Counted from the stretch's first letter, positions 21,768 through 52,797 are shown. The stretch: 64,000 bases of DNA from Clostridium sp. (GCA_023663865.1 JAMPGU010000008.1:715-64714); one strand, 5' to 3'. Notes: generated by a model not told the origin, from the letters alone. Numbers and translations are program-made.

Positions 21768-22565
21768 ATGGCAAGTAATGAAACAAAATACACGAATAAG
21801 GTGTTTATGGCAGGCGCTTTGCCTCTTATGAAAACCATTGCCACAGACGTGCCTGAACTGAAGAAAAAGTTTGAGGGCGTTAATGCTATATATCAGGTTT
21901 CTGCTAAAGTGAATGCTGAGGACAAGGAGGCTGTTCACTTTATTGTTGAAAATGGTGAATGGTCTGTTAAGCTGGGCGAATATCTCGGACAGGGCAAAAT
22001 TGATGCAGAGCTTGCATTTTCCTCAATGGAAAAGATGAATGCTTTTATGAAGGGCGATATGTCAAAACTTCCGAAAATGAAGATTAAATCCTTCGGTAAA
22101 TTTATGAAGTTTATGATGGTGCTTTTGAAAATGTCCTCGCTTCTTGGAATTACAGAGCCTCCCGAGGATGATGAGGAGCTTTCACTGCTGCTTTGTAAGC
22201 TGTATTTTTATCTTCTTTCCTCAGGTATTTCTCAGTTGAATAAGCTGGGTCATCCTGCTGTACATGAATGGGCGCTGAAAAGTCCTGACAGATGTTATCA
22301 GTGGGCAGTTGAGGGTCATCCTGAATGTACGGCTTATATGAGGGTTAAGGCAGGTAAATCAAGAGCAGGCAGAGGTGAATATAAGCGTTCAAAGCCTTTC
22401 TTCTGTATGAAGTTTGACTGCGCTACATCTGCTTTGAAGATATTGCTTGGTACAGGCGATATGTTCCAGATGACTGCAAATCAGCAGCTGATTATGGAGG
22501 GCGCGCCTGAATTCGGTGTTCAGATTGGTGACTTTATGATGCTGGTCGGAGACCTTGCAAAATAA
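21768..22565 (+). CDS. hypothetical protein with SCP2-like segments (second copy in the cluster)
   Basis: The N-terminal half has AELAFSSMEKMNAFMKGDMS. The C-terminal half has SALKILLGTGDMFQMTANQQLIMEGAPEFGVQIGDFM. Confidence 0.5.
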   Translation: MASNETKYTNKVFMAGALPLMKTIATDVPELKKKFEGVNAIYQVSAKVNAEDKEAVHFIVENGEWSVKLGEYLGQGKIDAELAFSSMEKMNAFMKGDMSKLPKMKIKSFGKFMKFMMVLLKMSSLLGITEPPEDDEELSLLLCKLYFYLLSSGISQLNKLGHPAVHEWALKSPDRCYQWAVEGHPECTAYMRVKAGKSRAGRGEYKRSKPFFCMKFDCATSALKILLGTGDMFQMTANQQLIMEGAPEFGVQIGDFMMLVGDLAK

Positions 22566-22582
22566 TATATATTACATATTTT

Positions 22583-22614
22583 AAGGACAGTCAAAGTAAT
22601 GACTGTCCTTTGTT
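22583..22614 (+). terminator. intrinsic terminator of the five-gene cluster
   Basis: AAGGACAGUC-AAAGUAAU-GACUGUCCUU (22583-22610), followed by UUGUU. Confidence 0.55.
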
Positions 22615-22649
22615 CATTGACTTTGCTGCTTAAAGATGCTATACTGAAA

Positions 22650-22817
22650 TTGCCAAACAAAATTGAATTTTTTCGTTAAGAAAGTATGTCTTTTTATTTT
22701 TTGATAAAAATGCGTACTCTATTTGCACATGCTTTTTTAATGATTGTATGTTCAATTTTGTTTGGCGACAGTTGGGGTATGCGTTTTATTGCACAGCTTC
22801 GGCTGTGCATTTTTTTT
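22650..22817 (+). ncRNA. structured small RNA, array copy 1 (unknown family; ends estimated)
   Basis: Promoter TTGACT(22617)-17-TATACT(22640). P1 pairs 22652-22667 with 22751-22766 (16 bp). Terminator UGCACAGC-UUCG-GCUGUGCA + U8 at 22790-22817. Confidence 0.6.
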
Positions 22818-22916
22818 ATTTTATGACAACAAAAATATGAATGCTTTTAATTTGAGTTTAAAGCATTTGAACATTTGTATTTATTGACTTCACTGTCTAA
22901 TGATGATATACTAAAA

Positions 22917-23078
22917 ATGCCAAATGATTTTCAATTTTATAACCATAAGATGCGGTAAGTGTTTTTCTTGTTAAAAATGCTTGCTCTTTTCAGCTTACTG
23001 CTTTTATGGTAAATTGGAAAATTGTTTGGCGACAGTGGGAGCAGCGTTTTATTGCACAGCTTCGGCTGTGCATTTTTT
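22917..23078 (+). ncRNA. structured small RNA, array copy 2
   Basis: Promoter TTGACT(22884)-17-TATACT(22907). P1 pairs 22919-22937 with 23011-23030 (includes G-U pairs and one bulge). Terminator at 23053-23078. Confidence 0.6.
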
Positions 23079-23181
23079 GTTTTATGGCAATAAAGAAAAC
23101 GATGAATGCTTTTGATTTGAATTTAAGGAACTTGAACATTCGTATTCATTGACTTTACTGCCTAATAATGATATACTGAAA

Positions 23182-23343
23182 TTGCCAAACAAATTCCATA
23201 ATTATTTTAACTAACATAGGTGGGCGTTTTTATTTTGTTAAAAATGCGTGCTCTTGTTCTGCACACTTGTGTTAGTGTAAGGAATTTGTTTGGCGACAGT
23301 TGGTGCATGCGTTTTATTGCACAGCCTCGGCTGTGCATTTTTT
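23182..23343 (+). ncRNA. structured small RNA, array copy 3
   Basis: Promoter TTGACT(23149)-17-TATACT(23172). P1 pairs 23184-23197 with 23281-23294 (14 bp, perfect). Terminator at 23318-23343 with loop CUCG. Confidence 0.6.
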
Positions 23344-23446
23344 GTTTTATGGCAATAAAGAAAACTATGAATGTTTTTAATTTGAATTTAAAGAGTTTGA
23401 ACATTCGTATTCATTGACTTTGCTGCACAATAATGATATACTAAAA

Positions 23447-23618
23447 ATGCCAATAACTCTATAATTTAATAATGTACAAATAAACAGCGTGTTTTTTTAT
23501 TCTTGATAAAAATGCAGGCTCTTTATTAGCATACTGTTTTTTGTACAGTATAGTTATAGGGTTGTTGGCGCAGTCGGAGTCTTGCGTTTTATTGCACAGC
23601 TTCGGCTGTGCATTTTTT
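23447..23618 (+). ncRNA. structured small RNA, array copy 4 (also the leader of the NYN-like ORF)
   Basis: Promoter TTGACT(23414)-17-TATACT(23437). P1 pairs 23449-23464 with 23554-23569. P2 pairs 23473-23487 with 23534-23547. Terminator at 23593-23618, 19 nt before the ATG at 23638. Confidence 0.6.
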
Positions 23619-23637
23619 ATTTTAGGGGATAAAGAAT

Positions 23638-24015
23638 ATGGCTTGCTTTTTAATTGATTTTGAGAATGAAAGCGGAAAACTGCTTGACGGAATATCCTGC
23701 CTGAATTTGACCGAAAAGGATGAGCTTGTAATTTTCTACAGCAAAAATGTGTCCCACGTACATATGGAGCTGCACAAGGAGCTTGAAAAGGTGCGGGCAA
23801 AAAAGCTGTATATTAAAACAGAGGTAGGAACACCGCATGCACTGGATTTTCAGCTTTCCTCCTATCTGGGAGCCTGTATTCAGAAACACCCTGAAAAAGA
23901 ATATTTTATTGTGTCAAAGGACAAGGGATTTGACTGTGTCTGTCGTTTTTGGAACAGTAAAAATATTTTTGTAGAAAGAATTGCCGTGATTTTGCTGTTG
24001 GGTATGTACAGATAA
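23638..24015 (+). CDS. small NYN/LabA-like (PIN-fold) putative ribonuclease, 125 aa
   Basis: AGGGGA SD. Motifs CFLIDFEN (N-terminal strand plus acidic residues), HALDFQLSSYLG and YFIVSKDKGFD follow the NYN-domain pattern (iDgeN ... aDi.l ... SgDsDf). Judged by eye only. Confidence 0.55.
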   Translation: MACFLIDFENESGKLLDGISCLNLTEKDELVIFYSKNVSHVHMELHKELEKVRAKKLYIKTEVGTPHALDFQLSSYLGACIQKHPEKEYFIVSKDKGFDCVCRFWNSKNIFVERIAVILLLGMYR

Positions 24016-24196
24016 TCTTTTTTCATTATCAACCGTGACGGCAGGAGAGCAGAAACAAATAAAATTATTTGGAATTTACTATTGAAATTTTCTGCCGTAT
24101 AATGTAATATAATATAAATTATATAATATATAAATATTTCGTCAGTGATTTCTTTAAACGAATGTAAATTATTGGCACGCTTTTATGGAGTTGTGT

Positions 24197-24976
24197 ATGG
24201 AAAAAATCACAGGAAAAAATAATGATTTGGTAAAGGGCATAAAAAAGCTGTTATCTTCTTCCAGGGAGCGTAAGGAAAAGGGTTTGTTCGTTCTCGAGGG
24301 AGCTAGATTGGTTTTTGATGTCCTTAATTCTTTTTATAAGGTAAAAATTTTTTTAGTAACCGAGGATATTCTTGCAAAGTATAGTAGTGAATGTGACAGT
24401 CTGATTCGCTTGGCAGAACAGTCATATATTATATCAAAGGATGTTTCCTCCAAGCTGACAGAGACCAAAAGTGCGCAGGGTGTATTTGCTGTCTGTGAAT
24501 GCAAGGGCGACGAGGACTTTCGTTTTGTCAGCAACGGAAAATATGTTGCCCTTGATAATGTTCAGGACCCGGGCAATCTCGGTGCTATTGTTCGCACGGC
24601 AGAGGCGCTTGGTATAGACGGCGTGCTGGTTGGCGGCGGCTGTGATATGTATAATCCCAAGGTGCTTCGCTCCGCAATGGGTTCAATGCTCAGAATAAAT
24701 ATAAAGCAAACGAATGATTTATCCTCCCTGCTTGCTGATATGAAGCGCAGCGGCTTTAAGCTCTACGGCACAGTGCCAAGCAGCAGTGCGCAGCCGATAA
24801 CAAATATAGATTTTTCTTCAGGGGCAGTCTGTGTTATCGGAAATGAGGCAAACGGAATATCCGACGAAATCAAGGAATGCTGTGATAAGCTGGTGACAAT
24901 TAAAATGCTCGGCAGGGCAGAAAGCCTTAATGCATCTGTTGCCGCTTCAATAACGATGTGGGAGATGCTGAGATGA
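24197..24976 (+). CDS. TrmH/SpoU-family RNA 2'-O-methyltransferase
   Basis: Motifs NVQDPGNLGAIVRTAEA, IGNEANGIS and SLNASVAASI. ATG at 24197 lies 6 nt after GGAG. Confidence 0.85.
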   Translation: MEKITGKNNDLVKGIKKLLSSSRERKEKGLFVLEGARLVFDVLNSFYKVKIFLVTEDILAKYSSECDSLIRLAEQSYIISKDVSSKLTETKSAQGVFAVCECKGDEDFRFVSNGKYVALDNVQDPGNLGAIVRTAEALGIDGVLVGGGCDMYNPKVLRSAMGSMLRINIKQTNDLSSLLADMKRSGFKLYGTVPSSSAQPITNIDFSSGAVCVIGNEANGISDEIKECCDKLVTIKMLGRAESLNASVAASITMWEMLR

Positions 24977-52519: not shown

Positions 52520-52797
52520 ATGAAACGGCTTAGACAAAGAGGAGTAGCTTGTACTGATCTTTCAGAGAGTGTCCGTTGGGTGAAAGGACACAGAGAGGGC
52601 AGGTGAAGGTAGCTTTCGAGCCGGCTGGGTGAAACAGCAGTAGCCTGGTCCGTATTTCTGCGTTAAGGATTTAAGCGGCATTTTGCAGGCAATTATAAAG
52701 ATGGATTTTGTTTCTTTTATTGATTTGCTCTGCAGTGCAATTTGAGTGGTACCACGGAATTTTATCCGCCTCATTTTTGAGGCGGTTTTTATTTTTT
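52520..52797 (+). promoter_or_regulatory. T-box riboswitch leader (tRNA-sensing attenuator) of valS
   Basis: Stem I elements are present: GGAGUAGC, CAGAGAG and the distal GGGUGAAAG. CGUUA F-box. T-box sequence AAUUUGAGUGGUACCACGG at 52739-52757. Terminator CCGCCUC/GAGGCGG + U-run at 52766-52797. Confidence 0.88.

Follow-up and report, generated by a model that had tools for sequence, protein, structure and literature searches.

A probable transcription-attenuation leader RNA, repeated in tandem ahead of a PIN7-domain gene in Clostridium sp. and found before many unrelated genes in related genomes

The 64,000-nucleotide (nt) stretch of Clostridium sp. DNA analysed here (GCA_023663865.1 JAMPGU010000008.1:715-64714; hereafter the window) contains, at positions 22600-23640, four head-to-tail units of ~265 bp each. 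Each unit comprises a sigma-70-type promoter, an RNA starting with GCCAA and a terminator, TGCACAGC-TTCG-GCTGTGCA, followed by a T-run. Units 1-3 each end in their own terminator with the next unit following, and unit 4 precedes a gene for a PIN7-domain protein. A sequence-only reading of this DNA had described four private, paralogous small RNAs (sRNAs), which fold into rods with variable arms and a conserved apex and tail, and had attributed this pattern to recognition by a protein. We find that the four are copies of a multicopy 5' leader that stands before many unrelated genes, more than 100 in all, in uncultured Clostridia of the gut and rumen, and we put the probability that this leader is a clade-specific transcription attenuator at roughly 60%.

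The features of the array are given below in window coordinates. Bit scores are from R1, a covariance model introduced further on, and folds were computed by minimum free energy (MFE). P1 and P2 are the two helices of the rod; P3 is the A/U hairpin that caps it, together with J, a conserved segment that is unpaired.

22617..22645, + strand: promoter of unit 1, with TTGACT, a 17-nt spacer and a TG-extended TATACT (promoter scan)
G22652, + strand: predicted transcription start of unit 1, the first base of P1
22652..22817, + strand: leader RNA of unit 1, from the rod base to the terminator U-tract (R1 116.1 bits; fold)
22652..22668, + strand: 5' strand of P1 in unit 1, partner 22750-22766 (MFE fold)
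22673..22689, + strand: 5' strand of P2 in unit 1, partner 22727-22743 (MFE fold; helices 2 and 3 covary)
22691..22710, + strand: apical all-A/U hairpin P3 of unit 1, 22691-22698 with 22703-22710 (MFE fold)
22706..22721, + strand: candidate apex switching segment of unit 1 (A-run and J), AAAAAUGCGUACUCUA, complementary to the tail
22767..22787, + strand: tail of unit 1, GACAGUUGGGGUAUGCGUUUU, the putative 5' half of the antiterminator and also the partner of the apex segment
22790..22817, + strand: intrinsic terminator and U-tract of unit 1, stem 22790-22809 (terminator scan)
22884..22912, + strand: promoter of unit 2 (promoter scan)
22919..23080, + strand: leader RNA of unit 2 (R1 107.3 bits), with apex segment 22973-22988, tail 23031-23050 and terminator 23053-23072
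23149..23177, + strand: promoter of unit 3 (promoter scan)
23184..23345, + strand: leader RNA of unit 3 (R1 107.4 bits), with apex segment 23240-23255, tail 23295-23315 and terminator 23318-23337
23414..23442, + strand: promoter of unit 4 (promoter scan)
23449..23620, + strand: leader RNA of unit 4 (R1 101.1 bits), with apex segment 23508-23523, tail 23570-23590 and terminator 23593-23612
23624..23629, + strand: ribosome-binding site (RBS) AGGGGA of the PIN7 gene, 12 nt past the terminator stem of unit 4 and directly after the T-rich tract (read from the sequence)
23638..24015, + strand: PIN7-domain gene, 125 aa, predicted to be gated by unit 4 (Pfam PF18475, E 2.6e-24)

The RBS follows the terminator of unit 4 so closely that there is no space for a further promoter. 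R1 recovered exactly four copies in the 64-kb window (101-116 bits, E ~1e-17 to 1e-20) and no fifth. In the four-copy alignment, the GCCAA/TTGGC clamp, AAAAATGC, CTCT, CAGT..GG..GCGTTTTAT and the terminator are invariant. The shared clamp, apex, CTCT, tail and terminator of the sequence-only reading thus stand; the tail, which it took to be single-stranded, is not simply so, since it is complementary to both the apex segment and the terminator region, as described below.

A pattern made from the invariant bases was searched against bacterial contigs, with one genome per species, and matched at least 118 loci. Among the matches listed, nearly all belong to uncultured "Eubacterium sp.", Oscillospiraceae, Ruminococcaceae or Clostridia of the rumen and gut, where a single genome often has three or four loci. 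R1 (176 positions, 50 pairs, 43 loci, structure set by hand) detected 105 copies in loci L001-L099, together with 27 good and 4 weak reverse-strand matches in L100-L122. Its yield among the matches listed is 136 further units in ~120 loci of related uncultured genomes. Nothing is conserved outside the promoter-to-terminator span in the homologous loci. Scanning the whole window with Rfam 15 at the gathering threshold gave no family for the units; the sole match was a true T-box leader at 52522-52776 on the + strand (RF00230, 120.1 bits, E 5e-26), which is unrelated to the array. A permissive Rfam scan of 22400-24200 gave only chance-level hits, the best being the terminator-driven tsr26 at 28 bits, compared with a gathering threshold of 141, and full-text literature searches found no description of the element. 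Clostridia-type leaders also occur in genomes labelled 'Bacteroides sp.' (L033, L057, L059, L068, L071, L087 and L113) and in one labelled Coriobacteriaceae (L043), and one short-PIN7 record (P0031) is labelled Acetobacter/Bacteroides; these oddly labelled, leader-bearing bins are probably mislabelled or contaminated.

MFE folding reproduced all of the P1 and P2 pairings that had been proposed for the window copies. The four rods have MFEs of -37.7 to -44.5 kcal/mol, as compared with -16 to -20 kcal/mol for dinucleotide shuffles (z-scores of -9.2, -6.8, -7.6 and -7.4 for copies 1-4), and 0 of 200 shuffles were equally stable. In the homologues, the rod measures ~34 +/- 6 bp, with P1 and P2 of ~17 bp each separated by an asymmetric loop (5.2 nt on the 5' side versus 1.0 nt on the 3' side). 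In the model alignment of 109 homologues, 94.8% of the cells are paired, versus 78.3% with shuffled partners and 38-50% when slid, and changes on both sides are seen in 35 of the 50 modelled pairs. Pairing in P1 reaches 98.4%, and 11 of its 16 pairs covary; P3 is 95.3% paired and conserved in sequence. One P1 position alone reads U-A 48, A-U 44, C-G 11 and G-C 2 times.

Since this alignment was fitted to the structure, arm pairing was additionally tested without any alignment. The variable arm cores pair with their own partners at -15.2 kcal/mol, versus -6.2 kcal/mol with the arms of other copies, and the own arm ranks best of 117 partners in 69 cases and within the top three in 100. The rod was not recovered by plain MAFFT with RNAalifold, because the variable arms misalign. 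Another P1 position is dominated by G-U (U-G 74, C-G 30), and the reverse strand of the units scores only 15-17 bits against R1; the frequent U-G pairs and the low reverse-strand score indicate a strand-specific RNA structure on the + strand. Taken together, these data bear out the proposal that selection acts on the shape of the rod rather than on its sequence, and that the copies are not decaying duplicates; the pairing specific to each copy exceeds chance by far. In a large subfamily (for example L005, L029 and L014), the 5' bulge between P1 and P2 is semi-conserved as ACAA-R-UGAAUAUUU, a motif that is missing from the window copies and some others and that might be a hinge or a contact motif.

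The position of the units relative to promoters and genes is equally regular. A -10 hexamer is present in all 118 units examined, 106 of which have it 6 nt upstream of GCCAA; it is TG-extended in 112, and 102 have a -35 box. This fixed distance places the transcript start at the base of P1. At the other end, the terminator stem is 95.6% paired in the homologues, with strong covariation, and an RBS and open reading frame (ORF) on the same strand follow in 94 of 110 units. The median distance from the U-tract to the start codon is 21 nt (30 nt or less in 71 units), too short for a second promoter to fit. The terminator therefore sits between the promoter and the start of a same-strand gene, as in an attenuation leader. 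The 90 downstream proteins span 74 Pfam families, most commonly BspA-type leucine-rich repeat (12), zinc ribbon (10), subtilase (4), XRE-type helix-turn-helix (3) and AMP-binding (3), and SLH, Big_2 and collagen-like proteins are also among them. These genes share no pathway; what the leaders share is a conserved core of apex, J and tail.

Two other roles for the conserved RNA were rejected. The arms are not antisense to the start of the downstream gene, because the energies for the own gene and for other loci are alike (5' arm, -15.83 versus -15.63; 3' arm, -12.94 versus -13.04), in agreement with the sequence-only reading, which had argued against antisense guides. Nor do the units encode a leader peptide from the invariant AUG of AAAAAUGC: the ORFs scatter from 4 to 28 codons, 34 of them run off the end, and there is no RBS.

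The tail has a partner in the terminator. In folds of the full transcript, CAGUUG(G)AGC of the tail pairs with GCUUCGGCUG, which covers the top of the terminator and its UUCG loop, and the lower end of the terminator 5' strand is taken up by UGCGU of the tail. The resulting antiterminator hairpin excludes the terminator and stops 4 nt before the U-tract. In 81 of 88 distinct sequences it is the more stable of the two, by a mean of 4.25 kcal/mol; the advantage in window copies 1-4 is 3.5, 4.0, 0.1 and 7.2 kcal/mol (for unit 1, -16.9 versus -13.4 kcal/mol for the terminator alone; for unit 4, -20.6 versus -13.4 kcal/mol). In an alignment made by MAFFT from sequence alone, the antiterminator's 16 pairs reach 91% pairing, versus 19-42% when slid, and 34 cells are changed on both sides, versus 20.8 in shuffles, with none of 500 shuffles reaching 34. 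G-U wobbles let the tail accommodate differing terminator classes. An alternative pairing that sequesters the terminator 5' strand is thus conserved, as in attenuation leaders.

The same tail has a second partner at the apex of the rod, where the conserved segment AAAAAUGCNNNCUCU is complementary to it. The invariant AAAAAUGC-NNN-CUCU, which consists of the P3 3' strand and the unpaired J, has (G)GAGC..UGCGUUUU of the tail as its partner. These duplexes reach -15.1 to -17.3 kcal/mol in the window copies, as compared with about -6 +/- 2 kcal/mol when J is shuffled (unit 1, -17.3 versus -5.9 +/- 2.1). In addition, the variable triplet changes in step with the tail: own pairs average -16.75 and cross pairs -13.25 kcal/mol in the four window copies, and in the homologues own apex-tail pairs average -15.26 versus -14.85 kcal/mol for permuted ones, a value reached by 18 of 5000 permutations. 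The helix tested comprises nine pairs, five contributed by the A-run and four by the beginning of J. It is 95% paired and shows changes on both sides in 14 cells, versus 6.7 in shuffles (1 of 500); RNAalifold picked the pairing unprompted. The apex-tail and antiterminator pairings compete for identical tail bases.

Because the tail pairs exclusively with either of two partners through the same bases, a terminator/antiterminator/anti-antiterminator switch is implied. In such a switch, the extended -10 sigma-70-type promoter would fire exactly at the rod base, and a free tail would zip onto the terminator 5' strand, the UUCG loop and the top of the 3' strand during transcription. Once formed, the antiterminator would block the terminator, and RNA polymerase would read into the gene. 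If the apex segment (AAAAAUGC-NNN-CUCU) captured the tail first, the terminator would form and an RNA of ~165 nt would be released. The apex-tail pairing would thus act as an anti-antiterminator, with some signal setting its frequency. The chain of exclusive pairings would run from P3 5' strand/A-run and J, through A-run and J/tail and tail/terminator 5' strand, to the 5' and 3' strands of the terminator, giving a read-through state (P3 and antiterminator) and a termination state (apex-tail pairing and terminator). In the window, three units would terminate themselves and the fourth would gate the PIN7 gene. We infer from these pairings that the alternatives actually switch, in this direction, and that a signal exists. 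Such a scheme would also account for the conserved apex and tail, since segments with two partners must keep their sequence; this conservation, from which protein recognition had been deduced, can be explained without a protein by the mutually exclusive pairings of the tail. Recognition of the leader by a protein, PIN7 or another, is possible. The earlier interpretation is partly supported; the observation behind it is confirmed, and the finding is more general than first noted.

Several points weigh against the attenuator. The advantage of the antiterminator is near nil in copy 3, at 0.1 kcal/mol, and shuffled tails still gain 1.95 kcal/mol, such that only 35 of 88 sequences exceed 95% of their own shuffles; single-sequence support for the antiterminator is moderate. 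Covariation in both the antiterminator and the apex-tail helix is weak because most columns are conserved, and the search pattern itself fixed several of the bases involved. A rod of ~34 bp separates the apex from the tail, and only ~7 nt link its base to the pairing site, so that the two could pair in cis only through a sharp fold-back at the mid-rod bulge, and would otherwise have to pair in trans or be bridged by a protein. The helix lengths do not favour a fold-back (P1 and P2 lengths correlate at r = -0.31); total length is better conserved, and the split point depends on MFE parsing. Finally, wherever a unit is followed by a further unit and no gene, it behaves as an RNA gene in its own right.

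The rod might instead recruit a factor that modifies RNA polymerase for processive antitermination, by analogy with put or EAR RNA and with LoaP or an RfaH-like NusG paralogue; the terminator of the leader would then just be the first one that such a polymerase overrides. Many of the target genes encode surface or secreted proteins, in which the RfaH, UpxY and LoaP regulons are likewise rich; a conserved element, GGCGACAGTTG, directly follows the rod, and the T-run before the terminator is a possible pause site. In that case, however, the register-specific complementarity of the tail to both terminator and apex would be superfluous, and no NusG paralogue turned up near the units, although none was sought. 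We regard processive antitermination as distinctly unlikely.

The separation of apex and tail could also be bridged within the attenuator by pairing between molecules, in which a released short leader captures the tail of a nascent one and forces termination. The released leader would lie antiparallel to the nascent one, and matched rod lengths would be required, so that length would be kept as the sequence drifts. If this were true, the pool of short leaders would set the expression of a surface and accessory gene set; tandem arrays would enlarge that pool, and a leader-controlled PIN7 nuclease could clear it. This form of self-recognition is a long shot.

The tandem arrays and the PIN7 gene bear on a different explanation, in which the units are stand-alone, trans-acting sRNAs bound or cut by a protein and, in the sharpest form, RNA repeats that work with PIN7 like a type III toxin-antitoxin system. 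Every unit has its own promoter and terminator, and three of the four window units precede another unit rather than a gene. The short PIN7 proteins (53-75% identical) come, save for a few records with odd labels, from uncultured genomes of the "Eubacterium sp."/Clostridiales type, the sort in which the leader occurs. At least one leader precedes each of the six short-PIN7 genes for which upstream DNA was available: the window array has four, L122 three and L082 two, and L053, L119 and L120/L121 have a single one each. Among the matches listed, tandem arrays stand most often ahead of PIN7 genes. The protein keeps the invariant acidic residues D7, E9, D28 and D95, and its predicted structure is confident (predicted local distance difference test score, pLDDT, 86.8).

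Other data speak against a dedicated RNA-protein pair, which would not predict that one RNA stands a short, constant distance ahead of genes from 74 or more unrelated Pfam families. PIN7 follows only one of the ~100 pattern-found units among the matches listed, and arrays also precede an XRE regulator (L114), a 91-aa protein (L052) and further non-PIN7 genes with a visible start (arrays in L062, L088, L071 and L093). The 80 metagenome loci of more distant PIN7 relatives (38-70% identity) contain no leader match, the few closest being without upstream DNA, and we rejected the leader as a general companion of the PIN7 family. PIN7 fits no NCBIfam or PADLOC model, no defence model and no ToxN-like family; a search of the PDB with the predicted model gave no fold match at E <= 0.001, the top hits being generic Rossmann-like folds. 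We consider stand-alone sRNAs unlikely, and PIN7 is one regulated gene and a candidate partner, nothing more. Loci L120 and L122 lie ~8 kb apart on the same 539,556-bp contig, so that one genome has two short-PIN7 paralogues: one, with a single leader, follows PNPase; the other, with three leaders in tandem, comes after a 128-aa Ribonuclease_3-domain protein, beside obg and the L21/L27 genes.

Some copies of the leader are incomplete. A remnant in L004 (2411-2543, + strand; 62.7 bits) consists of the 3' arm, tail and terminator only; it lacks the GCCAA 5' arm, yet a small gene still lies downstream. In L058 (~109-289, - strand) and L111 (2321-2495, + strand), from different genomes, an identical foreign sequence starts from within the terminator loop (GGCTTCG|CTGACTGTCATTAAGGATTGATTTTT...) and perhaps represents a mobile element with the terminator hairpin as its target. 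Terminators are also disrupted in L057 and L084.

Such remnant and disrupted copies (L004, L058 and L111) would suit a mobile or recombining DNA cassette, either similar to a miniature inverted-repeat transposable element with an outward promoter or similar to an attC site, in which the hairpin matters as DNA. The units are dispersed, with several copies per genome, the promoter belongs to the conserved unit, and the downstream genes look accessory. In addition, the hairpin base GCCAAAC...GTTTGGC is one base per arm off the integron core and inverse-core consensus (RYYYAAC / GTTRRRY). Unlike recently moved, identical repeats, however, the arms have diverged by compensatory changes, the structure is strand-specific and rich in G-U pairs, and no conservation extends beyond the promoter on one side and the terminator on the other. 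The neighbouring genes include no integrase, transposase or reverse transcriptase, and neither the RNA pattern nor PIN7 relatives were found in 2.9 million viral contigs, on which grounds a phage origin was also rejected. On this balance, a DNA cassette is very improbable.

In the window, the array lies among genes for an aminotransferase, the transketolase halves, an unknown 265-aa protein, PIN7, a SpoU methylase, DprA and topoisomerase I; the neighbours other than PIN7 are housekeeping genes. The ORF for the 265-aa protein (21768-22565, + strand) adjoins the array upstream, has its own terminator (22583-22610) directly before the promoter of unit 1, and had no match in Pfam, NCBIfam or PADLOC.

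We judge the element to be a new, clade-restricted attenuator family of promoter-leader-terminator cassettes. If the switch is real, the leader defines a regulatory RNA family that is new and restricted to Oscillospirales of gut and rumen, uncultured but abundant (of the "Eubacterium sp." type). Such a family would govern genes for BspA-like adhesins, proteases, zinc-ribbon proteins and small regulators, which would suggest that one hidden signal coordinates much of the cell surface. The architecture raises the structural question of whether the apex contacts the terminator region by a fold-back, as a dimer or through a protein ruler. The leader is an orphan candidate for ligand and protein hunting, and R1 is ready for annotating genomes of the clade.

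With respect to known systems, type III toxin-antitoxin loci (ToxIN) resemble the array in having tandem RNA repeats, a terminator and a small RNase-like gene. The repeat here, however, is ~265 bp long with its own promoter and terminator rather than ~36 nt, the protein is PIN7 and not of the ToxN, CptN or TenpN family, with no PADLOC match, and the RNA stands before 74 Pfam families, which places the array outside this class. The units are likewise set apart from retron non-coding RNAs, as no reverse transcriptase lies among the neighbouring genes, and from integron attC sites, as they lie 5' of genes, carry a promoter and a terminator, form RNA-like G-U pairs and have no integrase nearby.

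T-box leaders are closer in design: they too have a long stem with a conserved apex, a conserved antiterminator 5' strand and a terminator, and a stem whose length is kept like a ruler. The units differ in having no specifier loop or T-box sequence and in downstream genes that are not amino-acid related, and RF00230 misses them, yet finds the true T-box in the same window. Pseudoknot riboswitches (ZTP, preQ1 and cyclic di-GMP) similarly combine variable helices with a conserved junction and tail; their 3' tail can pair with an internal loop beside the terminator. Like the units, cyclic di-GMP riboswitches in Clostridia are multicopy and lie ahead of diverse, often surface-related genes. The units, in contrast, match no Rfam riboswitch, their paired partners are ~34 bp apart, and their P1 rod (about -40 kcal/mol) is far too stable for a switching helix.

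The closest comparison is with the terminator/antiterminator/anti-antiterminator leaders of Firmicutes, which include the B. subtilis rplJL L10 leader (PMC4538822), pyr/PyrR and trp/TRAP. As in these attenuators, the terminator lies just before the gene, an upstream segment pairs with the terminator 5' strand, and a structure further upstream competes with that pairing. The leader described here has no sequence or Rfam similarity to them, however; its putative sensor is a ~34-bp rod with the competing segment at the far end, its promoter is part of the conserved unit, and it occurs in several copies per genome, before unrelated genes and sometimes in tandem arrays. As a transcription attenuator, the leader is of a kind already known, and what is new is its architecture, its copy number, its range of genes and its tandem arrays.

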